DNA of 64,000 bases from an uncultured Bacilli bacterium (GTDB taxonomy: Bacteria > Bacillota_I > Bacilli_A > RF39 > UBA660), in assembly GCA_934141145.1 (NCBI GenBank), contig CAKPCA010000003.1, positions 7,748 through 71,747 of the forward strand, written 5' to 3'. Shown piece after piece: positions 5,821 to 50,821 of the stretch (position 1 is its first letter; every line of letters starts with the position of its first letter). The position numbers and the translations under genes are program-made. The notes under the pieces were generated by a model. It made no database searches, had not been told where the DNA came from, and saw nothing but the letters and a program-made list of their open reading frames with translations.

Positions 5821-5887
5821 CAAAACATAAAAAATGTAGTATTATTTTGTCATGCTTGAAATAAAGTATATAAACGAGGTGAGTTTA

Positions 5888-6358
5888 ATGGCTACAAAAC
5901 AAGAATGCTATATAACAAAAGAAGGATTAGAAGAATTAAAAGCAGAATTAGAAAATTTAACTAAGGTTGAAAGACCTGAAATAGTAAATGCTATAAAAGA
6001 AGCAAGAGCTCTTGGTGATTTATCTGAAAATGCTGAGTATCATGCTGCAAAAGAAAGACAAGGTATAGTAGAATCTAGAATTCATGAACTTGAATACTTA
6101 ATTGAACATGCTACAATAATAAAAGAAGGAACTTCAAAAGAAGTTAGAATTGGATCTACTGTTGAAATTAAGTATTTAGAAGATGATGAAATAGATGAAT
6201 ATAAAATAGTAGGTAGTACAGAAGCAGATCCATTTGAAAATAAGATATCTAATGAATCTCCAATTGCAAAAGTAATTATGGGTAAAAAAGTAAATGATAT
6301 TGTTTCTGTAGAAAGTCCAACAGGAAATTATCAAGTTCAAATAATTTCAATAAAATAA
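5888..6358 (+). CDS. greA: transcription elongation factor GreA
   Basis: canonical GreA N- and C-domains (LGDLSENAEYHAAKERQ); ATG 5888 with GAGGTGAG RBS. Confidence 0.9.
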   Translation: MATKQECYITKEGLEELKAELENLTKVERPEIVNAIKEARALGDLSENAEYHAAKERQGIVESRIHELEYLIEHATIIKEGTSKEVRIGSTVEIKYLEDDEIDEYKIVGSTEADPFENKISNESPIAKVIMGKKVNDIVSVESPTGNYQVQIISIK

Positions 6359-6377: not shown

Positions 6378-6406
6378 TTGATAGATACAATATTTAATAT
6401 ATAATA
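6378..6406 (+). promoter_or_regulatory. sigma-A-type promoter for the SIR2-like gene
   Basis: TTGATA, 17 nt, ATAATA. Confidence 0.4.
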
Positions 6407-6432
6407 TAATGACTAGAAAGAGGGTTAAATTT

Positions 6433-7608
6433 ATGCAGTTTCCATATAAAGTATCTAAACTTACTAAAGATGAGATAGATGTATTTAATAATTATTTTGC
6501 AAATAATAATGAATATATATTTGAAGGAGTATGGTTTAGAAGTCAAAATATAGAAAATAAAATTAATTCAGGTTACGTTGATAACACAACAAAAAGAAGA
6601 AGAACACTTCATTATAGACATACGTTTTATATAGAAAATGATTACTTAATGGTAAAAGACTCTTATATTTATTTAAGTGTTAGATTGCCATTAGATGAAT
6701 ATTATGACTATGTAAATAGTATAAAAGAAGAATTAAATAATAGTAACTATAATTTCATTAATAACGAATACAAAAAAGATGATATAGTAATTATTATTAA
6801 TGAATTTGATAAGCATCCCGAAGAGGAAAAAATAGATAATTATAAAGTAGTAGATATTATAGTAAAAAGTAATAATTTAACTAATACTAGTGATTTTTAT
6901 ACTCAAGTTTGGAAACTTCAAGTAAAAGGAATAAGAGAAAAGGATAAAAGAGGTAATCCAGAATATATAACTGATATAAGAAAGCTAGAAAAATATTTAC
7001 CAGCACAAGTAGAACTCGGATGTGGACCTAGTATAGAAGCAGGAATAATGCCACTTTATTATTTACATGAAATATATAAAGTTCAAAGACATAGTGATGG
7101 AAAGTTCTATTTTGGAAAAGATGATGATTTAATTCTTCAAATAATAAAAAAAGACAAAGATAAATTTGATGAATTTTATGAAATGATGATAATGTGCATT
7201 AAAGCAAAGCCTACATTATTTCATAAAAAATTAAAGGAAATGTATGAGAAAAATATATTAAAAGGGGATTTATTAAATAATAACTTTGATCGTTTATGTA
7301 AAAGAATAGGAATAAATGAAAAAATACTAAGAGTATATAATATTGAAAATTATTTTCCTAAAATAGAGTTTGATAAAAATATAAAGTCTTTAATATGTAT
7401 AGGTACACACGCGGATAGAAGAGGAGTACAAAAACAAGCAAGAGAAAAAGGATTAAAAATTATATATATAGATCCAGAGGGCTTCGAGACTGGTAATGGT
7501 TTTGAAGAATATTTAATAGAAGGCGCAAGTGATAATGATTTAATATTTAGAGTAAGTGCTAATTCTTTTGCTAATTTAATTGACATAAATAACATTAAAA
7601 TTAAATAA
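6433..7608 (+). CDS. SIR2-like (DHS-like NAD-binding fold) protein with an unknown 190-aa N-terminal domain
   Basis: C-terminal half carries GCGPSIEAGIMP (cf. sirtuin GAGIS..AGIP), LNNNFDRLCKRIG (cf. TQNIDxLhxxAG) and ICIGTHADRRG (cf. the GTSL motif). No obvious catalytic HG. The ORF track starts at 6409; ATG 6433 has the better RBS. Confidence 0.45.
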   Translation: MQFPYKVSKLTKDEIDVFNNYFANNNEYIFEGVWFRSQNIENKINSGYVDNTTKRRRTLHYRHTFYIENDYLMVKDSYIYLSVRLPLDEYYDYVNSIKEELNNSNYNFINNEYKKDDIVIIINEFDKHPEEEKIDNYKVVDIIVKSNNLTNTSDFYTQVWKLQVKGIREKDKRGNPEYITDIRKLEKYLPAQVELGCGPSIEAGIMPLYYLHEIYKVQRHSDGKFYFGKDDDLILQIIKKDKDKFDEFYEMMIMCIKAKPTLFHKKLKEMYEKNILKGDLLNNNFDRLCKRIGINEKILRVYNIENYFPKIEFDKNIKSLICIGTHADRRGVQKQAREKGLKIIYIDPEGFETGNGFEEYLIEGASDNDLIFRVSANSFANLIDINNIKIK

Positions 7609-7612
7609 AATA

Positions 7613-7641
7613 TTGATATATATTTTTATTTATTATATAAT
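7613..7641 (+). promoter_or_regulatory. sigma-A promoter upstream of tig
   Basis: TTGATA, 17 nt, TATAAT. Confidence 0.5.
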
Positions 7642-7670
7642 AAAAGAGATTGTTTTAAGGAGGAAGTTTA

Positions 7671-8912
7671 ATGAAAAACGTACATAAAATAGAAGTAAAA
7701 ATAGAAGGACAAAAATGGGAAGAAGCTCTAACAAAAGCATTTGAAAAAGTATCAAAAGATGTTAAAGTTGATGGATTTAGAAAGGGTAAAGTACCAAGAA
7801 ATATATTTGAAAAAAAATATGGTAAAGAATCTTTATATCCAGAAGCAGTAGATGCTGTACTTCCAAAAGCATATGAAAAGGTATTAAATGAAAATAAATT
7901 AGAACCTATTATTCAACCAACAATTGATATAAAAGAAATTGATGAAAAGCATGTAGTAATAGAATTTACAATAACTACTAAACCTGAAGTAAAAATCAAA
8001 AAATATAATGGTTTAAATGTAAAAAAAGAAAAAGTTTCAATAACTAATAAAGATGTAGAAAATGAAATAAATACATTATTACAAAAATATGCAGATGTAG
8101 AAGTAAAAGAAGGAAAGATTGAAAATGGTGATATAGCTGTTATTGATTTTGAAGGATTTAAAGATGGTGTAGCATTTGATGGTGGAAAAGGAGAAAATTA
8201 TTCACTTGAAATAGGTAGTAATACATTTATACCAGGATTTGAAGAACAATTAATAGGATTAAAATCTGGTGATGAAAAAGATATAGAAGTAACATTCCCA
8301 GAAGATTATGGTTCAGAAGAGTTAAAAGGTGCTAAAGCAACATTCAAAATAAAAGTACATGAAGTAAAAACTAAAGTACTTCCAAAAATGGATGAAGAAT
8401 TCTTTAAGGATTTAGGATTTAAAGATGTTGAAACAGAAGAACAATTAAGAGACTTAATAAAGGCAGATTTAGAAGCAAAAAAAGATTATGAACTTGAAAA
8501 TAAATATGTAGATGATTTATTGGAAGAAGTTGCAAAAAATACTACAGTAGAATTACCAGAACAATTAATTGATGAAGAAATTCATAGAATGATGCATCAA
8601 TATGAAGATAATTTAAAAATGCAAGGTATAACACTTGATATGTTCTATAAGTTTACAAATTCAGATGAACAAGCATTAAAGGATCAAATGAGAGGCGAAG
8701 CAGAAAAGAGAGTTAAATATAGATTTATGCTTGAAGAAATTGCTAGTCTAGAAAAAATAGAAATAGATGATAAAGAAGCAGAAAAAGAAATAGAAGATTT
8801 ATCTAAAAAATATAATACTCCAAAAGAAGAATTATTAAAACAAATTGGTGGTATTGAAATGATTAAATACGATCTTAAAATGCAAAAAGTATTAGATGTA
8901 ATGAAAAAATAA
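7671..8912 (+). CDS. tig: trigger factor
   Basis: DGFRKGKVPRNIFEKKYG motif plus PPIase and C-terminal domains. Confidence 0.9.
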   Translation: MKNVHKIEVKIEGQKWEEALTKAFEKVSKDVKVDGFRKGKVPRNIFEKKYGKESLYPEAVDAVLPKAYEKVLNENKLEPIIQPTIDIKEIDEKHVVIEFTITTKPEVKIKKYNGLNVKKEKVSITNKDVENEINTLLQKYADVEVKEGKIENGDIAVIDFEGFKDGVAFDGGKGENYSLEIGSNTFIPGFEEQLIGLKSGDEKDIEVTFPEDYGSEELKGAKATFKIKVHEVKTKVLPKMDEEFFKDLGFKDVETEEQLRDLIKADLEAKKDYELENKYVDDLLEEVAKNTTVELPEQLIDEEIHRMMHQYEDNLKMQGITLDMFYKFTNSDEQALKDQMRGEAEKRVKYRFMLEEIASLEKIEIDDKEAEKEIEDLSKKYNTPKEELLKQIGGIEMIKYDLKMQKVLDVMKK

Positions 8913-8976
8913 TGATGTAAAAAAAGAATGTTTAACTCTTTTTTTGTTTATATAATGTAAATAAGAAAGAAACTTA

Positions 8977-9005
8977 TTGACATAAAGGCTAGGGGGGTAT
9001 ACTAT
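8977..9005 (+). promoter_or_regulatory. sigma-A promoter for the pilin gene
   Basis: TTGACA, 17 nt, TACTAT. Confidence 0.45.
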
Positions 9006-9032
9006 AAGTAAATAGTATAGGAGAGTAGGAAA

Positions 9033-10205
9033 ATGAAGAAAAAAGGATTTACATTAATAGAATTATTAGCAGTAATAGTAATCTTAGCAATAATAACAGT
9101 AATAGCAGTACCAAAAATACTGAATGTAATAGAAAAGTCAAAAGAAAGTAGTGCGGAAAGTAGTATAAAACTTGTAAAAGATGCAATAAAAACACAAATA
9201 ACCGCAGGAGATGCACTAAATGAATCTAACTTTATAAAAAATAATGATGGTTGTTATTTATTTGATTTTGATGATCAAAGTACAGCAAATTCAAAAGAAT
9301 TAAAACTAAAAAATAAAGATAAAATAAGTGGAAGTATAACTTATTGTAATGGAACATTTAAAGATGATACATTAAAATTTGATGGTACAGAAATATCAAA
9401 AGACGATAATAACAATAAAATAATATGTAAAAGAGCAACAACACTTCATACAGAAGAATGTACACAGACAGATACAACATATTCTTGTTCAGGAGCTGGA
9501 TATACAACTAGTGGTTCAAAAGGAACAACTACAATAACATATGGTAACTTAGGAACAAAAGGAACACTTACTTCAGGGGATGCATTTGATTGTGATGTAA
9601 ATGGAGATGGAACATACGATTCAACAACAGAAAGATTTTATTATGTAACAGATATGGATAATAATACTGCAGTATTAATTTATTATAATAATGTAAGTGC
9701 AGGTAGTCCAAGTAATAGTGAGGTATATGCATATGATAGTTCAGAAGAAAACTTTCATGGACCAAGAACAGCAATAGAGCAGCTTCCTACAACTAGTCAA
9801 TGGAAAAATGTAAGTTTAAAAAATAGTACAAGAGCAATATTAAATGAGAATGCAGGTAATACAACAACAGGAGGAATATTGCCAAGTAACTTTAGTTATT
9901 CTGGATATGCAGCAAGATTACTTACAATAAATGATATTAGGAAGACTACTAATAATGGAAATATACCGACTAAACAGGTGGGAGAATTAGATGATTTTAA
10001 TTATTTATTAGAAAATACGAAGTATTCAAATCCTGATGTAGGAAATTATGGGTATTGGCTTGAAACTCCATATTTTGATAATTCAACCGATGCATGGTCA
10101 TTAAGTGGCGATTCCAGTCATATTTATTATACTATTGTTTCAAATGAGGTTTATCGTGGTGTTCGTCCGGCAATAGAAGTGTCTAAAGTAAATATTTTAT
10201 ATTAA
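9033..10205 (+). CDS. type IV pilin-like protein (prepilin N-methylation site) with a large Thr/Gly-rich C-terminal domain
   Basis: class III signal KKGFTLIELLAVIVILAII; 390 aa; no assembly genes adjacent. Confidence 0.8.
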   Translation: MKKKGFTLIELLAVIVILAIITVIAVPKILNVIEKSKESSAESSIKLVKDAIKTQITAGDALNESNFIKNNDGCYLFDFDDQSTANSKELKLKNKDKISGSITYCNGTFKDDTLKFDGTEISKDDNNNKIICKRATTLHTEECTQTDTTYSCSGAGYTTSGSKGTTTITYGNLGTKGTLTSGDAFDCDVNGDGTYDSTTERFYYVTDMDNNTAVLIYYNNVSAGSPSNSEVYAYDSSEENFHGPRTAIEQLPTTSQWKNVSLKNSTRAILNENAGNTTTGGILPSNFSYSGYAARLLTINDIRKTTNNGNIPTKQVGELDDFNYLLENTKYSNPDVGNYGYWLETPYFDNSTDAWSLSGDSSHIYYTIVSNEVYRGVRPAIEVSKVNILY

Positions 10206-10214
10206 TTAGAAAAA

Positions 10215-10239
10215 AGAAACAAAATTGTTTCTTTTTTTG
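10215..10239 (+). terminator. terminator after the pilin gene
   Basis: agaaac/gtttct hairpin plus T7. Confidence 0.6.
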
Positions 10240-10283
10240 ATTATTATATGATATAATATAAAAAAGAATAGGATAGGGATAGT

Positions 10284-12014
10284 ATGTTAGGAAAAATAAT
10301 AGCAATTGAGGGGAATTTGGCAGTTATAAAATTATCTATTGATTTAAGCAATAAAACTGGATTATTAAATATGCATGTTGCATTTGATTCAGTAGGATCA
10401 ACTATAATTGGTGAAATAGTTTCATTAAGTTTAACAGAAGCAAAAATATTATTACTTGGTGAAATAATAAATAATAATTTTGTGTCTGGTGTTAATAAAA
10501 AACCATCATTTTCAAGTACAGTTAGAATAATAAATAGAAATGAACTTGATTTAATAATTGGAAATTCAAATGGTGAACATTATGTTAATTTTGGAAGATT
10601 ACCACTTTATTCAGGATATCCATTAAATATAGATCCAAATAAGTTTTTTTCAGAACACTTTTGTATAGTAGGTAATTCTGGTAGTGGTAAAAGTTCTTCA
10701 GTCGCAAGAATATTTCAAAATTTATTTTTAAATAATACGCCAAAGACTAATATTTTTATATTTGATGTTTTTGGTGAATATCATACAGCGTTAAAAGGTA
10801 TAAATAATATTTCATATAAATCTTATACAACGGATAAAGAAAGTGAAGAAACTAATTTAGTACAAATACCAATATGGTTACTTGATGCGGATGATATGGC
10901 ACTTTTATTAGAAGCAGAAAGTTATGTACAAATACCTATAATAGAAAAAATGCTTAGAATAGTAACTATATATTCTATGGATGAAGAACAAAGAGATAAA
11001 CATATAAATGATATAATAGCAAGAGCTGTCTTAGAAATACTATATAGTGGTAAACCAGCTAATCAATTAAGAGACCAAATAATGGCAATCTTCTCAATGT
11101 TTAATACTAAAACATTGAATTTAGAAACAGAAGTTAGAGTTCCTGGATGGACTAGAACATTAAGACAATGTTTGATTCTTGATAAAGATGGTAAAATAGC
11201 AGATATAGTACTTGTTTCTAATTTCTTTAAGAAATTTATAAATAATGATACAGAATTAAATCCAGGTCATGGTAAATTATATTATACATTAGAAAATTTA
11301 TATGATGCTTTAGAACTTGCATTTATTTCTGAAGGAATATTAAAAAGTGACGCAATATATGAGAAAATTAATGTTTTAAGAGTTAGATTAAAATCTATAA
11401 TAAATAGTGATTATGGTAATTATTATAGAGTAGACAATTATATTTCTAAAGAAGATTATGTAAAATCTTTAAATGAAGATGGTAAATATAATATAGTTAA
11501 CTTTAATATAAATAATATTACTGATAGACAAGCTAAAGTTATGATAAAAATATATTCTAAAATGTTATTTGAATATAATGCGAGATTAGAAGATAGAGCT
11601 TCATATCCAGTACATATATTTATAGAAGAAGCACATAGATATATACAAAGAGATAGAGATATTGATTTGATTGGATATAATATATTTGAAAAAATTGCAA
11701 AAGAAGGAAGAAAATATGGTGTTATTTTAGGATTAATAACACAAAGACCTTCAGAACTTAGTGATACTACACTTTCACAATGTTCAAATTATTTAATTCT
11801 AAGAATTATAAATCCTAAAGATCTTGATTATATAAAGAATGTTGTTGCTAATATGAGTGATGAATTAGTCGCTAAAATAAAGAGTCTTCAACCAGGATAT
11901 ACTTTGATGGTTGGTAGCGCATTTAAAATACCTATAATAACTAAATTTGATATGCCAAATCCAGCCCCATATTCTAAAAATGTTGATATAAATAATACTT
12001 GGTACAAAGAATAA
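10284..12014 (+). CDS. HerA-like (DUF87) HAS-barrel ATPase
   Basis: N-terminal HAS-barrel-like beta region; Walker A GNSGSGKSS; Walker B HIFIEEAH; GLITQRPSEL motif typical of the HerA/FtsK clade. Confidence 0.7.
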   Translation: MLGKIIAIEGNLAVIKLSIDLSNKTGLLNMHVAFDSVGSTIIGEIVSLSLTEAKILLLGEIINNNFVSGVNKKPSFSSTVRIINRNELDLIIGNSNGEHYVNFGRLPLYSGYPLNIDPNKFFSEHFCIVGNSGSGKSSSVARIFQNLFLNNTPKTNIFIFDVFGEYHTALKGINNISYKSYTTDKESEETNLVQIPIWLLDADDMALLLEAESYVQIPIIEKMLRIVTIYSMDEEQRDKHINDIIARAVLEILYSGKPANQLRDQIMAIFSMFNTKTLNLETEVRVPGWTRTLRQCLILDKDGKIADIVLVSNFFKKFINNDTELNPGHGKLYYTLENLYDALELAFISEGILKSDAIYEKINVLRVRLKSIINSDYGNYYRVDNYISKEDYVKSLNEDGKYNIVNFNINNITDRQAKVMIKIYSKMLFEYNARLEDRASYPVHIFIEEAHRYIQRDRDIDLIGYNIFEKIAKEGRKYGVILGLITQRPSELSDTTLSQCSNYLILRIINPKDLDYIKNVVANMSDELVAKIKSLQPGYTLMVGSAFKIPIITKFDMPNPAPYSKNVDINNTWYKE

Positions 12015-12037
12015 GTTTTAAAAAACTTATTTTTTTG
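12011..12037 (+). terminator. terminator after the HerA-like gene
   Basis: ataagtt/aacttat hairpin plus T7. Confidence 0.6.
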
Positions 12038-12061
12038 TTATAATTTTTTTAGGTGATAATA

Positions 12062-13147
12062 ATGTCTAATATAAAAAGTGCATATATACATATTCCTTTT
12101 TGCAAAAGTATTTGCTCATATTGTGATTTTAGTAAAATGTATTATAATTCTAATTTTGTTAATTCATATTTAAATGCATTAAGTAATGAAATAAAAGAAG
12201 ATTACAAAGGTGAAATATTAGATACTATTTATATTGGTGGAGGAACACCATCCGCATTAAGTATAGATGAATTAAAAAACTTATTTTTAATAACAAATAC
12301 TTTAAATTTAAGTGATAACTATGAATTTACTATAGAATGTAATATAGAAGATATAACTAAAGAAAAACTAGAATTATTTAAAAATAACAAAGTTAATAGA
12401 ATTAGTATAGGGGTACAAAGTTTTAATAACAAGATATTAAAATACTTGAATAGAAAGTATGATAGTGAAATTATATTAAAAAAAATAAATTTAGTAAAAA
12501 AATATTTTGATAATATAAATATTGATCTAATATATGCGGTTAATAATGAAACTATTGATGATTTAAAAAAAGATTTAAAAATGTTTTTAAGTATTGATAT
12601 ACCACATATATCTTGTTATTCATTAATAATTGAAAAAAATACCATTTTATATAATAAAAATGAAGAATATATAAGTGAAGATTTAGATAGATTAATGTAT
12701 GATACAATAGAAAAGACATTAAGTTCTAATTATTGTCATTATGAAATAAGTAATTATGCTAAAAAAGGATTTGAATCAAAACATAATTTATGTTACTGGA
12801 ATAACAAGGAATATTATGGATTTGGTTTATCCGCCGCATCTTTTATAGAAAATAAAAGAATTAATAATACAAGAAATTTAAAAAAATATATAGAATTTAA
12901 TAGAGATAAGGAAGAAGAAATACTTACTAAAGAAGATAAGATAAGATATGAATTAATACTTGGTTTTAGAAAGATAGAAGGTATTAACAAAAAAGAATTT
13001 TATAATAAATATAATATAGATATTCATAATTTGTATAATATTAATGAACTATTAAAAAAAGGTTATTTAAGTGAAAATGATAAATATATTTTTATACCAA
13101 AGGAGTATATTTATGTTTCAAATGATATTTTGATTAATTTTATATAA
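12062..13147 (+). CDS. hemW: radical SAM heme chaperone HemW (HemN-like)
   Basis: CxxxCxxC (CKSICSYCDF) plus GGGTPS; position before hrcA as in Bacillus. Confidence 0.85.
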   Translation: MSNIKSAYIHIPFCKSICSYCDFSKMYYNSNFVNSYLNALSNEIKEDYKGEILDTIYIGGGTPSALSIDELKNLFLITNTLNLSDNYEFTIECNIEDITKEKLELFKNNKVNRISIGVQSFNNKILKYLNRKYDSEIILKKINLVKKYFDNINIDLIYAVNNETIDDLKKDLKMFLSIDIPHISCYSLIIEKNTILYNKNEEYISEDLDRLMYDTIEKTLSSNYCHYEISNYAKKGFESKHNLCYWNNKEYYGFGLSAASFIENKRINNTRNLKKYIEFNRDKEEEILTKEDKIRYELILGFRKIEGINKKEFYNKYNIDIHNLYNINELLKKGYLSENDKYIFIPKEYIYVSNDILINFI

Positions 13148-13581: not shown

Positions 13582-15222
13582 ATGATAAACAAGGAAAAAG
13601 TATTAAATGAAGTTATAAAAAAATATGAAAAATTTGGAATAACAAAAGAAGAAATACAAAAGTATTTAGTTGATGAGACAAGTACATATAAAAATGATGC
13701 AGATGCAATTAAAAAAATATCAATATCTCTTGATAACTCTATAGTTCAAAATGTCGCAAACTTAAGCACTATAAGAACTTCATACAATTATTTAAAAAAA
13801 ATAATTAAATCAGATGGTATTAGCTTATCAAGAATTAGTAAATTAGCAAGTAATGATAAAGTAAGTATTGATAGCAAGCTTGATGAAATATATAATCAAA
13901 TAATAAATACAATAAAAGAGAATTATGATAGTAGTAAATTATTAAGTCAAAATATAATAGAAAATATGAAACAATTTTTACAAAAAGATGTAGTTACAAG
14001 TATAGATAAAAATGAACAATTTGATATTACTTTTTTAAAGAGATTAAATGGTGTCAGTATTGAATCTATTTCAAAAGTAACAGATATTCCAGTATCAACA
14101 CTTTATAGTTATATTAATTTGAATAAAAAAGTTCCTGGATATAATCTTGCCCAAATTCTTGAATATTTTAATGTAAAAAATTATGATGAATTAAAAGAAT
14201 TATCTGAACAAAAGAAACTTGTTACAGAAGTTTTAAAAAACAACCCTGAAGTAGAAACAAATACTAATAAATTTGATATTTCTATACTAAAAGCTTATTT
14301 ATTAAAAAATAATGTAATGCTTGTTAAATTACAAATAGTATTATCAATGAACAAAGCAAGATTAATAAAATGTCTTGCAGGTGAAGAACTAGTTACGGAT
14401 GATATCATGAATGAAATATATAAATTATTTGAAGTAAATAGTTATGATGAACTTGTAACAAAAATAAGAGAAAATACTTTAAAAATTCCAGCGTGTTTAA
14501 AACCAGAGCGTTATGATATATTATTTTTTAACAAATTTATAGCTTTAAATAATATTGATAAGATAAAACTAGCTGATACATTAGGTATAAATAAGATGGT
14601 GTTAAGTGATTATTTAAATGGTAAAAAAGCCGCACCAACAAAATTAGTAGATAAGCTAATTGATATATTTGGGTTAATCAATTTTTATGATTTAGAAGTT
14701 AATGTGAAAAAAAATACTTTAAATGTTCCAACCTATTTATTAAAAACAGTAAAAGAAAATATAACTGTAAAAAATATTAGTACCCAAGAAAAAGATAATA
14801 AAGAAATAATTAAGAATAATATTTCTGAAAAAGTAAAGGAAACAGAAGAATCTAAAAAAGAAGTAAAAGATGCTAAATCAGAAGTAGAAAATGAACAAGA
14901 AACACAAATAAATGAAATTGCTAGTAGTTCTACCAGTAATACCCACACTAATGATACGATTCCAAATATTCTAAATATGATAAAGATAGATGAACTATTA
15001 AAATTAATCGGAAAAGAAAATATATCAAACTCAGATTATATGATTGTATTACTATTATTTGGAGGAGTAGAAGATCAATACTTTAAGATATCTTCAATAT
15101 CAAAATTCCTTCATATAAATGAAGAATACATTAATAATATTTATACTAAATGTCTAGAATTATATAAAAATAAATTAAATGATGAATTAAAAAAAGAAAA
15201 AACTATGATTTTAGAAAAATAA
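13582..15222 (+). CDS. hypothetical regulator: N-domain, three tandem XRE-type HTH repeats, K/E-rich linker and a sigma-70 region-4-like C-terminal HTH
   Basis: three ~70-aa repeats (FDITFLKRLNGVSIESISKVTDIP.., FDISILKAY.., YDILFFNKF..); C-terminus DYMIVLLLFGGVEDQYFKISSISKFLHINEEYINNIY resembles sigma region 4. Confidence 0.55.
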   Translation: MINKEKVLNEVIKKYEKFGITKEEIQKYLVDETSTYKNDADAIKKISISLDNSIVQNVANLSTIRTSYNYLKKIIKSDGISLSRISKLASNDKVSIDSKLDEIYNQIINTIKENYDSSKLLSQNIIENMKQFLQKDVVTSIDKNEQFDITFLKRLNGVSIESISKVTDIPVSTLYSYINLNKKVPGYNLAQILEYFNVKNYDELKELSEQKKLVTEVLKNNPEVETNTNKFDISILKAYLLKNNVMLVKLQIVLSMNKARLIKCLAGEELVTDDIMNEIYKLFEVNSYDELVTKIRENTLKIPACLKPERYDILFFNKFIALNNIDKIKLADTLGINKMVLSDYLNGKKAAPTKLVDKLIDIFGLINFYDLEVNVKKNTLNVPTYLLKTVKENITVKNISTQEKDNKEIIKNNISEKVKETEESKKEVKDAKSEVENEQETQINEIASSSTSNTHTNDTIPNILNMIKIDELLKLIGKENISNSDYMIVLLLFGGVEDQYFKISSISKFLHINEEYINNIYTKCLELYKNKLNDELKKEKTMILEK

Positions 15223-15235
15223 GAAGGTGATTTTT

Positions 15236-16126
15236 ATGGAATTTAATGTAAAGACACATTTAAAAAATAAGTATAAAGATTATAATATACCAGAATCAAT
15301 AATTGATAAAATAGAAAGTGAAGAAATTCAAGGCTATTATGTTGATATATTAATTAGAAAAACTATTCAAATAGAAAATTATATAATTGAACAAATAAAA
15401 AAAGATGATCTTGAAAAAGAATTATTAGTTTTAGAACAACATTCGTCATTAAAAACAATTATAAAATACAATAAAATTTGTTTAAAATTGCTAGATGAAT
15501 TAGCAAACAAAGAAGGTCTTTCTATTGATAAAGTGATAAATAAGCTTTATGAAGATGCATTGGAAAGATCATTAAGTAATTATAATGATAGCAGATTGAT
15601 TAGTGAAAATATTTTGTATAATATGCAAATAATACTGCTTCAAAAATTTGGATATGATGTTTCTTCTATAACTACTAGTTTTAACAAAACTAAAGAAGAA
15701 CAAGTAAAAGAAGAAAAAAATAATACTGAATCAGTTAAAAATGACTTAAAAAGTGATAGAAGTAAAAAAGAAAAAAAGAAAGAAAGAACACTTCAAAAAG
15801 ATATAAATATAGAATTTAATAAAACAACATTTGATGCAGAAGAAGTACCAAATATTAGAAAAATGATAAACTTAGAATATTTATTAAAATTAATTGGTTA
15901 TAAAAATGGTACAAAAACCAAAGATGATGCAATTATATTTTTATTGTTTGGTGGAATAGATGGACAATATTATAAAAATAGCGAAGTCGCAAAGGCTTTA
16001 AATATAAGTGAAGAGTATGTAAATGAAGTATATCTTAGATGTTTAGAAGAATACAAAAATTCTTTAGAAAATACTTACAAAAATGATATTAAAAATAAAA
16101 AATTAGGTTTATCAAAAAGCTCTTAA
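15236..16126 (+). CDS. paralogue of the 13582 protein without the HTH repeats (N-domain plus sigma region-4-like C-terminus)
   Basis: shared N-terminal motif (SRLISENILYNM vs SKLLSQNIIENM) and C-terminus (LLKLIG..IIFLLFGGIDGQYYKNSEVAKALNISEEYVNEVY). Confidence 0.55.
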   Translation: MEFNVKTHLKNKYKDYNIPESIIDKIESEEIQGYYVDILIRKTIQIENYIIEQIKKDDLEKELLVLEQHSSLKTIIKYNKICLKLLDELANKEGLSIDKVINKLYEDALERSLSNYNDSRLISENILYNMQIILLQKFGYDVSSITTSFNKTKEEQVKEEKNNTESVKNDLKSDRSKKEKKKERTLQKDINIEFNKTTFDAEEVPNIRKMINLEYLLKLIGYKNGTKTKDDAIIFLLFGGIDGQYYKNSEVAKALNISEEYVNEVYLRCLEEYKNSLENTYKNDIKNKKLGLSKSS

Positions 16127-39980: not shown

Positions 39981-40496
39981 ATGAAAAAGTTTGTACCAGA
40001 TATGTACAAAAAAAATATATATGAAATTAATTATGAAAAATTAAAAAGTATGGGTAAAAAGTATTTATTTTTTGACCTTGATAATACACTTATTAGTTAT
40101 TTAGATAGTGTTCCTACTAAGGAAAATAAGAAATTATTTGAAAAATTAAAAAAAATGGGATTTGTTCCATTCATATTTTCTAATTCACATAGTGAAAGAT
40201 TAAGACCGTTTAAAGAAGAATTAAATGTTATTACTTTATCTGGTAATATGAAACCATTAAAAAAAGGTTATAAAAAGGTTCTTAGCAAATATAACAAAGA
40301 TGAGTGCGTATTTATTGGTGATCAAATAATGACTGATGTAATAGGCGCAAAAAGAAATGGTTTATATGTTATATTTTTGGATAGGATAAACGATAAGGAA
40401 CCAATATATACAAAGTTTTGGAGATTTTTTGAGTCATTTGTATTAAAAAAATATGAAAAGAAAAATTATTTAGTTAAAGGAAAATATTATGAGTAA
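39981..40496 (+). CDS. yqeG: YqeG-family HAD phosphatase
   Basis: FFDLDNTL and GDQIMTDVIGAKRNG motifs. Confidence 0.8.
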   Translation: MKKFVPDMYKKNIYEINYEKLKSMGKKYLFFDLDNTLISYLDSVPTKENKKLFEKLKKMGFVPFIFSNSHSERLRPFKEELNVITLSGNMKPLKKGYKKVLSKYNKDECVFIGDQIMTDVIGAKRNGLYVIFLDRINDKEPIYTKFWRFFESFVLKKYEKKNYLVKGKYYE

Positions 40497-41505
40497 GAAA
40501 TGTATAGGGTGTGGTGCAATTCTTCAGTCTGATGATAAAGATAAAATCGGATATATAAGAAAAGAAAAGTTAGAAGATTCTAATTATTGTGAAAGATGTT
40601 TTAAAATAACTAATTATGGTGATTTTAAAAAGATTGACACTACTGGAGAAGAATATATTGAAATATATAAAAATATAAATAAAACAAATGATTTAGTCTT
40701 ATTTTTAGTAGATATATTTACACTTAATGATTCTATTAATATGGTAAATAAATATTTAAATAATAAAATAGTTTTAGTAGTAACAAAATATGATATAATT
40801 CCAAAATCAGTTAAAGAAAGTAAAATAAAATCAAAACTAAAAGAATATAATTTTAATAGTAATATAGTAGATATTGTATTTGTAAGTAGTAAAACTAATT
40901 ATAATATGGATCTATTATATGAAATGATAAATGAGTATAAAACTAGTAATAATGTTTATATAGCAGGTAATACTAATGCGGGTAAAAGTACTTTAATAAA
41001 TAAGTTGATTGAAAATTATTCTATAAATGATAATAGAGTAACAACAAGTATTTTACCTTCTACTACTATAAATACAAATGAAATAAAAATAAATGAAGAG
41101 TTAACTATTATAGATACACCGGGTTTTATAGATAGAGGTAATATTAGTAACTATGTAAGTGCAAAATTACTTAAAAAGATAATGCCAAATAATGAAATAA
41201 GACCAGTAACATATCAAGTTAATAAAGGTATAACTTTACTTATTAATAATTTACTTCGTATAGAATATGTAAATGGAGAAAAAAATAGTTTTACATTTTT
41301 AATGTCTAATGATATAATAATTAGTAGAATAAATACTATAACAAATACTAGGGGTAAAGATTTATGCAAACATACTCTAGAAGTAAATGAAAATGAAGAT
41401 GTTATAGTAGAAGGATTATGTTTTATAAAAATTACTAAGAAAGCAGTAATAGATATATATACTGTTAATGGAGTAAGTATTTATAAAAGAAAATCTTTAA
41501 TATAA
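40489..41505 (+). CDS. yqeH: ribosome biogenesis GTPase YqeH
   Basis: N-terminal CxxC...CxRC zinc ribbon; circularly permuted GTPase motifs. Confidence 0.85.
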   Translation: MSKKCIGCGAILQSDDKDKIGYIRKEKLEDSNYCERCFKITNYGDFKKIDTTGEEYIEIYKNINKTNDLVLFLVDIFTLNDSINMVNKYLNNKIVLVVTKYDIIPKSVKESKIKSKLKEYNFNSNIVDIVFVSSKTNYNMDLLYEMINEYKTSNNVYIAGNTNAGKSTLINKLIENYSINDNRVTTSILPSTTINTNEIKINEELTIIDTPGFIDRGNISNYVSAKLLKKIMPNNEIRPVTYQVNKGITLLINNLLRIEYVNGEKNSFTFLMSNDIIISRINTITNTRGKDLCKHTLEVNENEDVIVEGLCFIKITKKAVIDIYTVNGVSIYKRKSLI

Positions 41506-41521: not shown

Positions 41522-42802
41522 ATGAAAAAAGGGTTATTTGCAAAGTTAGTTTTATTTGCAATAATAATGATTATATTTCCAAAGAATGTGTATGCATTAA
41601 ATTTTAAAGTAGAAAGATCAGCAGATACTGTAAAACCAGGCGCAGAAGTTACTGTGTATGTAAAAGCAGAAGGTGTAGGAAATGATTCTTTAAAAGAATA
41701 TAATGTATCACTTGCATATGATGGAACAAAACTAGAATATAAAAGTGGTACAAGTGATGTTGCTACTGTAACACAAGGTAATCCAATTGTTGTAAAAAAT
41801 GGAAATGGTACAATAAGTTCAGACACAACAATTGCAACTTTAGTATTTGGAGTAAAAGCAAATTCTAAAGCAGGTGACACTAATTTAACGCTTACAAATT
41901 CTGGACTTAAAACAATAGCAGGTGAAGAAAAAACAGCAACTAATACAAGTTCAATGATAAAGGTTGCAGCTCTTGGTTCAGATGCAACACTAAGTTCATT
42001 AAAAATACCAAATACAACACTAAGTCCAAAATTTGATAAAAATACACTTGAATATACAGCAGACATAAAAGATATTACTGAAATAACTATTAATGCCCAA
42101 GCAACAGATTCAAATGCTAAAATAATGATATCAGATAACTATAAGAGTTTAGTTAAGGGAGAAAATATAGTAAAAATATCAGTAACTGCAGAAAATGGTA
42201 CAGCGACAAAAACATATCAAATTAAAGTAAATTTAACTATGACACCAACAGAGGAAGAAAAAATAAAAGCAAATGCATTACTTAAAAAATTATCTATAGA
42301 AGGATATGATATTGATTTTTCATCTGATCAAAAGAAATATACTTTAACAGTACCATATAAAGAAAAGAAAGTTAAAGTACTTGCAGAAGCAGAAAATGAA
42401 AATGCACCTATAGAAATGGAAGGTACAACTTCTTTAAAAGTAGGTAAAAATATAATAAAAGTATTAGTAACAAGTGAAGATGGTTCTACTAAAGAAACAT
42501 ATACTTTAACCATAACTAGAGAAAAACAAGAGAAAAAAGTTGTACAAACTTGTCCAGATGAAACAAGTACAAGAGAATGGATAGTATTCTCAGTAAGTAT
42601 GCTTTTAACATTTACATTAGGTATTGTACTAGGTTACTTTGTATGTAAAAAAGAAGTTCTTAGAAAAATATTTAAAAAGAAAAATAAAAAAGAACAACCA
42701 GAAGAAATAGATACTCTATCTGATACAATAGAACTTGATGCTAAAAAAGTAAGCGATAAACTAATAGAGGAAAAAGAAGAAGAATTAAAAGAAGATAAAT
42801 AA
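41522..42802 (+). CDS. surface protein: signal peptide, cohesin-like domain, two cadherin-like beta-sandwich domains, C-terminal TM anchor
   Basis: two repeats LSSLKI...TLSPKFDKNTLEYT...VTAENGTATKTYQIKVN; C-terminal TM plus K-rich tail. Confidence 0.6.
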   Translation: MKKGLFAKLVLFAIIMIIFPKNVYALNFKVERSADTVKPGAEVTVYVKAEGVGNDSLKEYNVSLAYDGTKLEYKSGTSDVATVTQGNPIVVKNGNGTISSDTTIATLVFGVKANSKAGDTNLTLTNSGLKTIAGEEKTATNTSSMIKVAALGSDATLSSLKIPNTTLSPKFDKNTLEYTADIKDITEITINAQATDSNAKIMISDNYKSLVKGENIVKISVTAENGTATKTYQIKVNLTMTPTEEEKIKANALLKKLSIEGYDIDFSSDQKKYTLTVPYKEKKVKVLAEAENENAPIEMEGTTSLKVGKNIIKVLVTSEDGSTKETYTLTITREKQEKKVVQTCPDETSTREWIVFSVSMLLTFTLGIVLGYFVCKKEVLRKIFKKKNKKEQPEEIDTLSDTIELDAKKVSDKLIEEKEEELKEDK

Positions 42803-47439: not shown

Positions 47440-49173
47440 ATGAAGAAAGTATTAAATTTTATAGGAAATTTCTTTTTATTTATAATTTTATTACCACTTA
47501 ATATTTTTAAGTATTTTAATTTATTCTTTTATTATGTTATAAAATTATTATTAAGAGAATCTCCAGAAAAAGCTGAAAAAAGAAAACAAAAAGAAGCAGA
47601 AAGAGAAAAAGAAAAACAAAAAGAAAAAGAAGAAGCAGAAAAATATATTAGAGAAAAAAATAAAGAAGCTAATATGGCTGCTTTAAAAGAAGGACAAAAA
47701 GATGTTCTTACAGAACCTGTAAAAAAAGATAGAAAATTATCTAGAGAAGAACAAAAAGAAGAACATAGAATTGCTAAAGAAAAAATCAGAATAGAAAAGC
47801 AAAGACAAAGAGAAGAAGCAAGAAAAGAAAATAAAAGTTTACTTCGTCAGTTTAGAGAAAGAAATATTTTTGCATTAAATAGACAAAAGAAACTTGATTC
47901 AAAAAGAAAAATATTGACTCTTGATCTTAATTCTGATGATTCAAAAAGAAGTACAGAAAAGATTATATTTAAATATACTGCAAAGAATCCTGCTGGTAAA
48001 ATAGAAAAAGGTACATTTCAGGGATATTCCAAACTAGATGTTCATTCATATTTATTATCAGAAGGTTATGAAGTATATGAGATAAAAGCAGTTGCAAAAG
48101 CTAATATGTTTAATACTGATTTAGGATTAAATAGACCAATAAAAAAATCTTTGTTAGTATTTTATTTAACACAGTTATCTACTTATATAAAAGCGGGTAT
48201 ACCACTTGTTGATTCTATTAAAATATTAACTAATCAATCTAAATCAAAAACGATGCAAACAATATGGAAATCTATTGTATATGAATTAACTATGGGTGCA
48301 TCACTTAGTGAAGCTATGCTTAGATGTGGTAATGTATTTCCTAAATTATTAATAAATATGGTAAAAACTGCTGAAATGACAGGTGATTTAGCAGAAGTTT
48401 TAGATGAACAAGCCGCATATTATAAGTCAGTAGAAAAATCTAGAAAAGAAATGAAAAATGCATTGATGTATCCAATATTTATATTTGCTTTTTCAATAAT
48501 AATAATTACATTTATATTAGTTTATGTTATACCTCAATTTGTTGATATATATGATAGTATAGGTGCAGATTTACCAGGAATTACTGTATTATTAATAAAT
48601 GTTAGTAATTTTGTTACAAAAAATATTTTATGGATAGTAATAGGTGTAATTGCTTTAATTACATTACTTACATTACTTTATAGACATAATGTATCATTTA
48701 AATACAGTGTAGAGTCAATACTTATGCATATGCCTGTAATTAAAGAAATAATAATAGATAATGAAATGACTATGTTTGCAAAAACTTTTGCAACACTTAT
48801 TAATAATAATATATTTATAACTGATAGTATGGATATTTTAAGTAGAATAACAGAAAATGAAGTATATAAAACTATAATTTATGATGCTGTTGAAAGTCTA
48901 GCAAGAGGTGACAACATATCTACATCTTTCTATGATCACTGGGCATTTCCTGACATAGCATATCAAATGATTGTAACAGGTGAAAAAACAGGTCAATTAG
49001 GAACAATGATGGATAAAGTAGGAGATTACTATCATGATGAACATGAAAATGCAATAGCGCAAATTAAAGTATTTATAGAGCCTGTATTAATTATATTCTT
49101 AGCAGTTGGTGTAGGTGGTATATTACTTGCAGTTATATTGCCAATGTTTAGTATGTATAATCAACTTATGTAA
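47440..49173 (+). CDS. pilC: type IV pilus platform protein PilC/GspF with a 165-aa N-terminal TM plus K/E/R-rich extension
   Basis: two GspF repeats; preceded by TM (FIGNFFLFIILLPLNIF) and a charged region; AGGAGTG RBS at the first ATG. Confidence 0.8.
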   Translation: MKKVLNFIGNFFLFIILLPLNIFKYFNLFFYYVIKLLLRESPEKAEKRKQKEAEREKEKQKEKEEAEKYIREKNKEANMAALKEGQKDVLTEPVKKDRKLSREEQKEEHRIAKEKIRIEKQRQREEARKENKSLLRQFRERNIFALNRQKKLDSKRKILTLDLNSDDSKRSTEKIIFKYTAKNPAGKIEKGTFQGYSKLDVHSYLLSEGYEVYEIKAVAKANMFNTDLGLNRPIKKSLLVFYLTQLSTYIKAGIPLVDSIKILTNQSKSKTMQTIWKSIVYELTMGASLSEAMLRCGNVFPKLLINMVKTAEMTGDLAEVLDEQAAYYKSVEKSRKEMKNALMYPIFIFAFSIIIITFILVYVIPQFVDIYDSIGADLPGITVLLINVSNFVTKNILWIVIGVIALITLLTLLYRHNVSFKYSVESILMHMPVIKEIIIDNEMTMFAKTFATLINNNIFITDSMDILSRITENEVYKTIIYDAVESLARGDNISTSFYDHWAFPDIAYQMIVTGEKTGQLGTMMDKVGDYYHDEHENAIAQIKVFIEPVLIIFLAVGVGGILLAVILPMFSMYNQLM

Positions 49174-49184
49174 AGGAGTAAAAA

Positions 49185-49994
49185 ATGGAAACAATAATAT
49201 ATAGTATAATGATATTTATAATTGGAATTTGTTTTGGATCATTTTTTAATGTAGTAGGATATAGACTTCCAAATAATATGTCTATATCCTTCCCACCATC
49301 TCATTGTACTAGTTGTAATCATAAATTAGGTGTATTTGAATTAATTCCAATATTATCTTATATATTTCAAGGTGGTAAATGTAAACATTGTAAAACAAAA
49401 ATATCATGCTTTTATCCAATATTTGAATTTTTAACAGGTGTACTTTTTGTAATATGTTATTTAGTATTTAAAGATGAATATCCTGAAATATTAAATATTA
49501 TATATGCAATGTTATTTATATCATCATTAATAATTATTATAATAAGTGATATAAAATACATGATTATTCCAGACGAAGTATTAATATTCTTTGGTGTAAT
49601 ACTTGTAATTTTAAAAATGATTATTATATATAAAATAAATCCTAACAATACATTCTTAGATATGGGATATGAGTTTGTATTTATATTGCTAGATGGAATA
49701 GTAATGTTTGTATTTATGTATCTAGTTAGACTACTTGGTAATGCTTTGTTTAAAAAAGATTCTATGGGTGGTGGAGACATAAAGATGATGACATTTGTGT
49801 CATTAATAATTGGATGGAAATTAGCTATTGTAGTAGTGTTTTTAGCGTCATTTTTAGCTCTTCCAATATCAATAATAAATATGTATAAGAATAAAGAACA
49901 TGTTCTTGCATTTGGACCATATTTAGCTATAGCTACCATGATATTATTTTTGTGTAAAATAGATTTTAGTATGATACTTGAATTTATTTCGTAA
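49185..49994 (+). CDS. pilD: prepilin peptidase/N-methyltransferase PilD (A24)
   Basis: CTSCNH..CKHCK zinc finger; D..GGGD motifs. Confidence 0.85.
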   Translation: METIIYSIMIFIIGICFGSFFNVVGYRLPNNMSISFPPSHCTSCNHKLGVFELIPILSYIFQGGKCKHCKTKISCFYPIFEFLTGVLFVICYLVFKDEYPEILNIIYAMLFISSLIIIIISDIKYMIIPDEVLIFFGVILVILKMIIIYKINPNNTFLDMGYEFVFILLDGIVMFVFMYLVRLLGNALFKKDSMGGGDIKMMTFVSLIIGWKLAIVVVFLASFLALPISIINMYKNKEHVLAFGPYLAIATMILFLCKIDFSMILEFIS

Positions 49995-50020: not shown

Positions 50021-50821
50021 ATGAACAAAAAAGGTTTTGCAACAAGTACAATAGTATTTGCATTATTATCAGTATTTTTAATATCAATAAGTATATTATT
50101 AGTAACAATAACAAATACAAGCAAGACAAAAAATACATTAAATGAAAAAGTAGTAAGTAATATAGAATATGGAAGTAATTCATTAAATGATATAGAAAAA
50201 AGATTAGAAGAACTAGAAAATAGTACATTAAAATTAGATAATGTGTATCCAGTTGGAAGTATATATATGAGTAATAATTTAAAAACAGTAGAAGAAGTGC
50301 ATAATGCATTAGGAGGAACATGGGAAAAGTATTCAGAAGGAAGAACAATAATAGGAGATGGAACAACGACAGATGAATCTGGCAATGCATTAGTATATAA
50401 TGCAAATCAAACTGGTGGTAATACTACTCAAATACTTAAAACAGATAATTTACCAAGTCATAATCATTCTTATGTACCTAATGGAAATATAACTTCACTT
50501 TTATCAAATGGTACTACTTCTTCATCAGGTGAACATACACATACATTGTCTACAGTGTTATATAAAAATCCTGATCCTCCACTATCATTTAGTGAGGTAA
50601 TCTTTTATGAATATCCAAGTGGTTATGCCGCAAAAAATTCTGGCCTTGGTTATACTAATACAGCTATTTCAAAATCTGGTAGTCATGAACACACAGTAAC
50701 CGGGACAATAACAAGTACTTTTAAAGGAATTAAATCTGAAACAGAAAGTACAGGTTTAAATAAATCATTTAGCGTGCAAGACCCATACATAGTAACATAT
50801 ATTTATAAAAGAGTTAAATAA
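50021..50821 (+). CDS. pilin-like N-terminus fused to a phage tail-collar (MdpB-like) domain
   Basis: N-terminal KKGFATSTIVFALL hydrophobic segment; YPVGSIYMS, LGGTWEK..GRTIIG and GGNTTQILKTDNLPSHNHS match tail-collar motifs. Confidence 0.6.
   Translation: MNKKGFATSTIVFALLSVFLISISILLVTITNTSKTKNTLNEKVVSNIEYGSNSLNDIEKRLEELENSTLKLDNVYPVGSIYMSNNLKTVEEVHNALGGTWEKYSEGRTIIGDGTTTDESGNALVYNANQTGGNTTQILKTDNLPSHNHSYVPNGNITSLLSNGTTSSSGEHTHTLSTVLYKNPDPPLSFSEVIFYEYPSGYAAKNSGLGYTNTAISKSGSHEHTVTGTITSTFKGIKSETESTGLNKSFSVQDPYIVTYIYKRVK

Follow-up and report, generated by a model that had tools for sequence, protein, structure and literature searches.

A histidine-less sirtuin-fold protein and a stand-alone HerA-family ATPase, probably unrelated neighbours in the chromosome of an uncultured Bacilli bacterium

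A stretch of 64,000 nucleotides from an uncultured Bacilli bacterium (contig CAKPCA010000003.1, positions 7,748 to 71,747 of the forward strand; hereafter the window) carries a gene for a sirtuin-like protein, designated here gene X, and, 2,675 bp further 3', a gene for a HerA-family ATPase. A preliminary description of this DNA had proposed that the two form a split, non-canonical SIR2-HerA antiphage pair, with two unrelated proteins or a partnership of HerA with an adjacent pilin as the other readings. The results presented here favour the reading as two unrelated proteins, X and HerA being very probably functionally unrelated chromosomal genes that lie 2.7 kb apart by chance in one species. 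The open reading frames (ORFs) were as first described and their core-genome setting (greA, tig and hemW) was borne out (Table 1). The interval between X and HerA is filled by tig and the gene of a 390-amino-acid (aa) pilin-like protein, every gene between 5.8 and 13.2 kb lies on the plus strand, and an hrcA-grpE-dnaK-...-dnaJ cluster is found further 3' of hemW. The G+C content is about 24% for the window and about 8-12% at third codon positions for the genes of the X-HerA region.

For the suggested promoter of gene X there is a promoter-like site upstream of it, and further such sites precede tig and the pilin gene; as promoter-like sites are no commoner here than in shuffled sequence, the one at 6378-6405 is only suggestive. 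The terminators expected on both sides of HerA were recovered by folding as AT-rich hairpins with T-runs, another of which lies 3' of tig; a consensus terminator scan requires at least three G-C pairs and misses hairpins of this kind. The promoter-like sites and terminator-like hairpins between the two genes support separate transcription of X and HerA, as read from the sequence.

Table 1. Coordinates of genes, domains, motifs and putative signals around gene X and HerA (positions in the window)
Feature	Position	Strand	Evidence
greA	5852-6358	+	
Promoter-like site TTGATA-16-TATAAT, 5' of gene X	6378-6405	+	matches 11/12
Gene X, sirtuin-like, whole ORF, 391 aa	6433-7608	+	
X N-terminal domain, aa 1-181, alpha/beta	6433-6975	+	
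X C-terminal sirtuin-fold domain, aa 182-391	6976-7608	+	
X GxGxS motif	7018-7053	+	
X NNNFD motif	7273-7290	+	
X Tyr302, at catalytic-His position	7330-7347	+	
X GTHADRR motif	7402-7422	+	
X DPEG motif	7465-7482	+	
Promoter-like site of tig	7613-7641	+	promoter scan
tig (trigger factor), housekeeping, between X and HerA	7671-8912	+	Pfam Trigger_N, FKBP_C, Trigger_C
Type IV pilin-like protein, 390 aa, large C-terminal domain	9033-10205	+	PF07963, TIGR02532
Terminator-like AT-rich hairpin with T-run, pilin gene/HerA interval	10209-10238	+	-11.3 kcal/mol, z -3.96
Stand-alone HerA-family ATPase, 576 aa	10284-12014	+	Pfam, PADLOC, NCBIfam, PDB matches
HerA Walker A, aa 130-138	10671-10697	+	
HerA Walker B, aa 443-453	11610-11642	+	
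HerA EGRKYG	11703-11720	+	
HerA TQRPSEL, aa 486-492	11739-11759	+	
Terminator-like AT-rich hairpin with T-run, overlapping the HerA stop codon	12009-12032	+	-6.4 kcal/mol, z -2.3
hemW-like radical SAM gene	12053-13147	+	Pfam Radical_SAM, HemN_C

Gene X was assigned the ATG at 6433, which has a GAGGG ribosome-binding site 7 nt upstream; an alternative ATG at 6409 was rejected on account of this site and of the starts of the homologues, all of which begin M(K/Q)FPYK and are 388-398 aa long. The sirtuin-like motifs quoted in the preliminary description were all present, namely GCGPSIEAGIMP at aa 196-207, LNNNFDRLCKRIG at aa 281-293 and ICIGTHADRRG at aa 321-331. Across 64 aligned family members the conserved columns comprise G196, G198, S200 and E202, N283, N284 and D286, R300, and D347, P348 and E349, and the segment G324-x-H326-A-D328-R329-R330 is invariant. 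The Asn and Asp of the catalytic triad are thus kept (N284 and D286), and the suspicion that the catalytic His is missing proved justified: its aligned position is Tyr302, and the column holds Tyr in 40 sequences, Phe in 18 and His in one. The His was also absent from 19 further relatives and sister-family proteins that were aligned, the sister family retaining the GxGxS, DNxD, R300 and ADRR elements. Because only 21 residues separate Y302 from G324 and the four Cys of the protein include no CxxC, X has no zinc module. For the N-terminal domain, in which W34, R36 and R168 are invariant, no clear structural relative was found.

The SIR2-like fold attributed to the protein was confirmed by profile, motifs and a structure model. 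Searches with the single sequence of X gave weak matches to Sir2Tm only, the best of them to its H116Y mutant, a match explained by the Tyr of X at this position, and a profile of the 64 sequences matched Sir2Tm at E 1.9e-6 over both the GAGxS and TQNID motifs. Pfam SIR2 is touched by 28 of the 64 family members, and X of the window has no Pfam match even at E 0.1; scans of Pfam, PADLOC and NCBIfam returned nothing or sub-threshold sirtuin matches, no PADLOC model was matched, and a scan of PHROGs gave a single weak Sir2 match (E 4e-4). No match was found among phage genomes (tblastn), nor among the viral structures of BFVD at E <= 0.001 (Foldseek). The AlphaFold2 model was confident (predicted local distance difference test 95.5, predicted template modelling score 0.91), and by this model X resembles classical sirtuins more closely in structure than it does HerA-partnered SIR2, the defence SIR2 proteins scoring far lower (ThsA 8.8, PsSIR2 8.5, and the HerA-partnered Sir2 structures 8yhx and 8j4u 7.4). 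With classical sirtuins (Sir2Tm/CobB, Sir2-Af1, PfSir2A and SIRT4; PF02146) X shares the Rossmann fold, the GAGxS-like and TQNID-like motifs and an acidic residue at the adenine-ribose position. It differs from them in having Tyr or Phe for the catalytic His, in the deletion of the small domain with its Cys4 zinc ribbon, in the invariant G-x-H-A-D-R-R that replaces the GTS motif, in its extra N-terminal domain and in falling below the Pfam threshold.

The HerA identity of the 10284-12014 protein, including its Walker A, Walker B and TQRPSEL motifs, was firmly upheld. It scored 84.3 bits against Pfam DUF87 (PF01935; cut-off 23.2, E 1.7e-23), E 6e-100 against PADLOC HerA, where model PDLC04102 gave 333 bits, and E 4.8e-42 to 6.5e-61 against solved HerA chains of the PDB, the best of which was 9c1m, the HerA of HerA-DUF4297; the Sulfolobus HerA 4d2i was matched at E 2e-37. 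Among 19 orthologues of 51-87% identity no variation was seen in Walker A, Walker B, EGRKYG or TQRPSE, so that domain score, Walker and Arg/sensor motifs and likeness to solved hexamers all place the protein in the HerA family, the hexamer itself being a prediction here. In the HAS-barrel-like N-terminus that had been noted, the alignment with solved HerA begins only at about residue 52. Homologues number more than 7,700, and the best 120 of these are 575-605 aa long and 50-99% identical. A literature search returned no description of this HerA family or of the X family.

The genomic surroundings of HerA were followed in 88 loci with orthologues of 44-87% identity. In a relative whose HerA is 84% identical the adjoining hemW is only 69% identical, and the G+C content of HerA, overall and at third codon positions, equals that of the neighbouring genes; judged by sequence conservation, HerA behaves like a core gene that is more conserved than hemW. 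In about 17 loci sepF-divIVA follow it co-directionally, with Pfam confirmation of sepF and divIVA in one of these (L039, 9862-10750), and in about 18 others yqeG-yqeH lie upstream of it; other recurrent neighbours are a Peptidase_M16 pair, lepA and hemW. These yqeG-yqeH and sepF-divIVA surroundings are ribosome-biogenesis and cell-division neighbourhoods. Relatives of 84-87% identity lie either in a lepA-spoIIID-HerA-hemW arrangement or between mobile elements. Within its sub-clade HerA keeps hemW on its 3' side, as in L004, L107 and L108; as a general feature of HerA this adjacency was rejected, since it occurs in one of 83 metagenome and other loci, plus L107 and L108. In three loci of the closest sister species (87% identical HerA), genes of integrases, of a Mob_Pre relaxase, of the restriction enzyme MvaI/BcnI and of prophages occupy both flanks, which seem to serve as integration sites, and HerA is no longer linked to hemW. 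A 334-aa membrane protein whose gene overlaps the HerA start in two loci (L037 and L029) was set aside as a candidate partner, being found in only three loci and absent from the window. Pairing with a nuclease such as NurA, which had been named as a finding that would speak against a SIR2-HerA pair, was likewise not seen: 84 loci contained no conserved nuclease-like or effector-like neighbour, and no NurA match to Pfam was present among the annotated neighbours in L004-L007 and L107-L108. Compared with HerA-DUF4297 (9c1m) and the archaeal and Deinococcus HerA-NurA systems, the window HerA shares the family, the Walker A and B motifs and the QRPSE motif. It differs from them in standing alone within housekeeping synteny, with no DUF4297/Cap4-like or NurA gene beside HerA of this type in the 84 loci.

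The X family is small: clustering at 90% identity gives 297 groups, and at 50% identity there are about 200 among 1.84 billion representatives. Most members are about 400 aa long with both domains. Its genomic neighbours were examined in 26 loci with homologues of 34-72% identity, comprising 19 GTDB genomes (among them uncultured Bacilli, Clostridium sp. CAG:524, Tepidibacillus, a Geobacter metagenome-assembled genome (MAG) and a Paceibacteria MAG) and seven metagenome contigs. The neighbours vary even between close relatives, the nearest of which (70-72%) have X between helix-turn-helix (HTH) and CsoR genes or after a Peptidase_M16 pair, and homologues of tig and greA were absent within 6-10 kb of X in all 26 loci. 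Five full-length homologues of 31-33% identity, annotated as hypothetical, were examined on Streptomyces and Kitasatospora plasmids. In four of them the X gene is clustered, in the same orientation, with those of a class III aminotransferase and a UDP-glucose/GDP-mannose dehydrogenase; three of these clusters further include genes for GNAT acetyltransferase and for an RmlD-like protein that binds sugar nucleotides. The fifth is accompanied by an RmlD-like gene alone, at a distance of two genes and on the opposite strand. A homologue of 45% identity, the closest relative outside the gut clade (P0241), lies directly 3' of a UDP-sugar dehydrogenase gene; downstream of another (P0246) come an unknown gene that overlaps it and a GNAT gene, in that order; the Paceibacteria copy sits between GT4 glycosyltransferases; one full-length X is fused to NUDIX; and sister-family proteins are fused to RmlD/epimerase domains. 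We know of no described pathway that includes a sirtuin-fold protein of this kind. No such nucleotide-sugar partner gene occurs beside X in the gut Bacilli clade or at any place in the window.

Some X loci had features of their own. A distant homologue in L117 (2633-5178) was grouped with those of the four plasmid clusters as part of one conserved gene set (class III aminotransferase, UDP-Glc/GDP-Man dehydrogenase, GNAT and RmlD-like). In Tepidibacillus sp. LV47 (L023, 9965-14139) X overlaps the gene of a 259-aa unknown protein and is followed by genes encoding an ATP-grasp enzyme and an MFS transporter, an arrangement that resembles a small biosynthetic operon and differs from the Streptomyces cluster. 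In Clostridium sp. CAG:524 (L019, 10001-11184) a frameshift splits X into two ORFs, and in L026 (10001-11143) X matches in three low-identity pieces only, which reflects either pseudogenisation or assembly error in some genomes.

The protein encoded directly 5' of HerA qualifies as a type IV pilin by its prepilin motif and hydrophobic helix, its N-terminal methylation motif scoring 30.3 bits against PF07963 (cut-off 21.2) and 31.2 against TIGR02532 (cut-off 16.3). It is not the orphan that it had been called, as a PilC-like gene and a prepilin peptidase gene lie in the same window at 47440-49994. The PilC-like T2SSF protein is unusually long (577 aa) and has no PilB-type ATPase gene adjoining it, and the prepilin peptidase gene is followed at 50021-50821 by that of a protein with a phage baseplate Gp10_C-like domain.

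The proposal of a split, separately transcribed yet functional SIR2-HerA antiphage pair casts X as a divergent NADase (an enzyme depleting nicotinamide adenine dinucleotide, NAD+) that the HerA hexamer would activate. The likeness to SIR2-HerA (Nezha) of Paenibacillus sp. 453MF, E. coli and Listeria pLIS49 is real in several respects: X has a true SIR2-type Rossmann fold, HerA is complete, has a barrel, a RecA-like core and a helical insert as in those systems and finds its closest likeness among defence-type HerAs, the sizes of 391 and 576 aa resemble those of known pairs, and the known Sir2-HerA types are themselves highly divergent, with 13-22% mutual identity (PMC13434337). The published genes, however, overlap by 26 nt (PMC11472057), and the Listeria plasmid operon, whose HerA is, together with that of Enterococcus plasmids, the nearest plasmid relative of the window HerA (31-32% identity), has an annotated SIR2 family gene overlapping HerA by 8 nt, whereas in the window two genes, promoter-like sites and hairpins intervene and the genes are neither adjacent nor co-transcribed. 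HerA was found within 6-10 kb of X in none of the 26 X loci, and an X homologue within 8 kb of HerA in none of the 88 HerA loci, the closest relatives (70-87% identity) included. The preliminary description had held that HerA orthologues consistently lacking a SIR2-like gene would refute a pair, and this is what the absence of X-HerA linkage in the 26 and 88 loci amounts to, all 88 HerA loci being without a nearby SIR2-like gene. A 576-aa ORF directly 5' of X in one locus had the length of HerA only, with no Pfam domain and no HerA similarity. Tyr or Phe replaces the catalytic His throughout the X family, whereas the equivalent H212 of the Paenibacillus SIR2 is needed for defence together with N163 and D165 (PMC11472057). 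X was not matched by any PADLOC SIR2 model, falls outside the defence SIR2 clade and showed no detectable similarity to the SIR2 of the Listeria operon (BLASTP E 4.7). Moreover, HerA is conserved like a core gene, and its setting is the core genome and not a defence island or plasmid. It is thus extremely improbable that X and HerA form such a pair.

HerA might instead work with pilin-like proteins as an ATP-driven translocase of DNA or protein coupled to a type IV pilin or pseudopilus, for example in DNA uptake, by analogy with the Ced system of archaea, which combines a HerA/VirB4-clade ATPase with pilin-like membrane proteins. The only ORF with a pilin motif in the 64-kb window lies directly 5' of HerA, pilin-like genes occur within two genes of HerA in seven of 84 loci from different species (some with a 19-nt gap or overlapping ORFs), and HerA matches NCBIfam CedD weakly (E 1.2e-13). 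Pilin genes were about 4.5-fold enriched near HerA (9 of 290 genes versus 7 of 988 elsewhere; Fisher p 0.0035), a statistic that ignores phylogeny and the clustering of pilin genes. However, about 92% of HerA loci have no adjacent pilin gene, the HerA-adjacent pilins are not orthologous to one another beyond the N-terminal helix, a strong terminator-like hairpin parts the pilin gene from HerA in the window, and the lineage has ordinary PilB-type (T2SSE) ATPases, one of them in L107, as well as PilC and PilD. The partnership that had been suggested thus retains a weak enrichment and is judged quite improbable. Only slightly less doubtful is the view of HerA as a domesticated or remnant defence protein, its effector (SIR2, DUF4297/Cap4-like, NurA or another nuclease) having been lost or being encoded elsewhere, with X irrelevant to it. 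Among solved and plasmid proteins its best relatives are HerAs of defence systems, PDLC04102 scores high, and one close relative has integrases and a restriction enzyme flanking HerA; on the other side stand the absence of a conserved nuclease or effector neighbour, scores of 150.7 and 158.6 bits against the NCBIfam antiphage-HerA models NF042943 and NF042944 (cut-offs 800 and 850), and a broad core synteny with conservation above that of hemW, unlike patchy defence genes. Because HerA recurs beside pilin genes, sepF-divIVA and yqeG-yqeH, it might also be a lineage-wide housekeeping DNA translocase cooperating with pilin-based or division machinery, and, independently, X might represent a new functional class of sirtuin fold in which an R...ADRR site takes the place of the His in nucleotide-sugar metabolism. 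This proposal is unlikely; if true, HerA would be part of a bacterial counterpart of HerA/Ced-type DNA handling and not a defence motor.

On the favoured reading, that X and HerA are unrelated, X represents a rare, uncharacterised two-domain family in which a novel N-terminal alpha/beta domain is joined to a C-terminal sirtuin-fold Rossmann domain, with the dinucleotide-binding motifs GxGxS-x-E, (T/N)NNxD and D-P-E retained and with R300 and G-x-H-A-D-R-R as invariants specific to the family. Because of the enzyme neighbours of its distant relatives, the dinucleotide motifs kept and the loss of the His, X is predicted to be a binder of NAD(P) or a nucleotide sugar and not an NADase: its ligand would be of the NAD or nucleotide-diphosphate type (NAD(P)+, ADP-ribose or a UDP-sugar), it would carry out neither His-dependent deacylation nor NAD+ depletion and so would not be an NAD+-depleting effector, and in distant relatives it would act with nucleotide-sugar enzymes. 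Proteins of the deoxyhypusine synthase (DHS)-like NAD/FAD-binding fold, such as transhydrogenase dIII and deoxyhypusine synthase, use NAD(P) as a redox cofactor without the sirtuin His. Such His-less redox chemistry would fit the dehydrogenase and aminotransferase company of the distant X homologues, but no sequence-level match of these proteins to X was found, and redox use of NAD by X is purely conjectural. HerA, in turn, would be vertically inherited; it is a stand-alone gene that keeps the Walker A, Walker B and arginine/sensor motifs intact and is conserved, with 45-87% identity, among housekeeping genes in a broad lineage of uncultured low-GC Bacilli. Its product is predicted to form a hexamer that uses ATP to translocate or unwind DNA in the service of the cell (DNA maintenance, segregation or transport) and not to be an abortive-infection motor.

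Several points weigh against this interpretation. Sequence dissimilarity alone is weak evidence given the divergence among Sir2-HerA types (PMC13434337), and linkage was assessed in flanks of 6-10 kb, so that X and HerA could co-occur genome-wide. The nearest solved and plasmid relatives of the window HerA (9c1m and, at 31%, Listeria) are defence HerAs, and its PADLOC HerA score is high. The cellular role of HerA is deduced from genomic context, and the nucleotide-sugar link of X was drawn from distant relatives of 31-45% identity and has no parallel around the X genes of the gut Bacilli.

Elsewhere in the window, two tandem ORFs between hemW and hrcA (13582-15222, 546 aa, and 15227-16126, 299 aa) share a C-terminal module, LLLFGG..GQYY..ISEEY.N..Y..CLE.YKN; the 546-aa protein has several HTH_3-like repeats and the 299-aa protein has no Pfam match. 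At 41522-42802 a 426-aa protein with cohesin and cadherin-like beta-sandwich domains is encoded, which is unexpected in a very small, low-GC genome region of Bacilli type, and the gene of a yqeH-like GTPase lies just 5' of it at 40489-41505.

On present evidence, X and HerA are uncharacterised, ordinary-looking chromosomal genes, and neither is a new system. A false positive is thereby removed: finding a SIR2-like fold within a few kilobases of a HerA is insufficient for a defence call, which needs linkage across relatives and a check of the catalytic residues. The analysis flags a compact sirtuin-fold family with neither the catalytic His nor the zinc module. The genes for UDP-sugar dehydrogenase, aminotransferase, GNAT and RmlD-like proteins that accompany it point to a use of the sirtuin fold that is neither deacylase nor NADase. 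The analysis also flags an orphan HerA that is widely conserved in uncultured Bacilli of gut, rumen and digesters and that HerA models readily mis-score as a defence gene.

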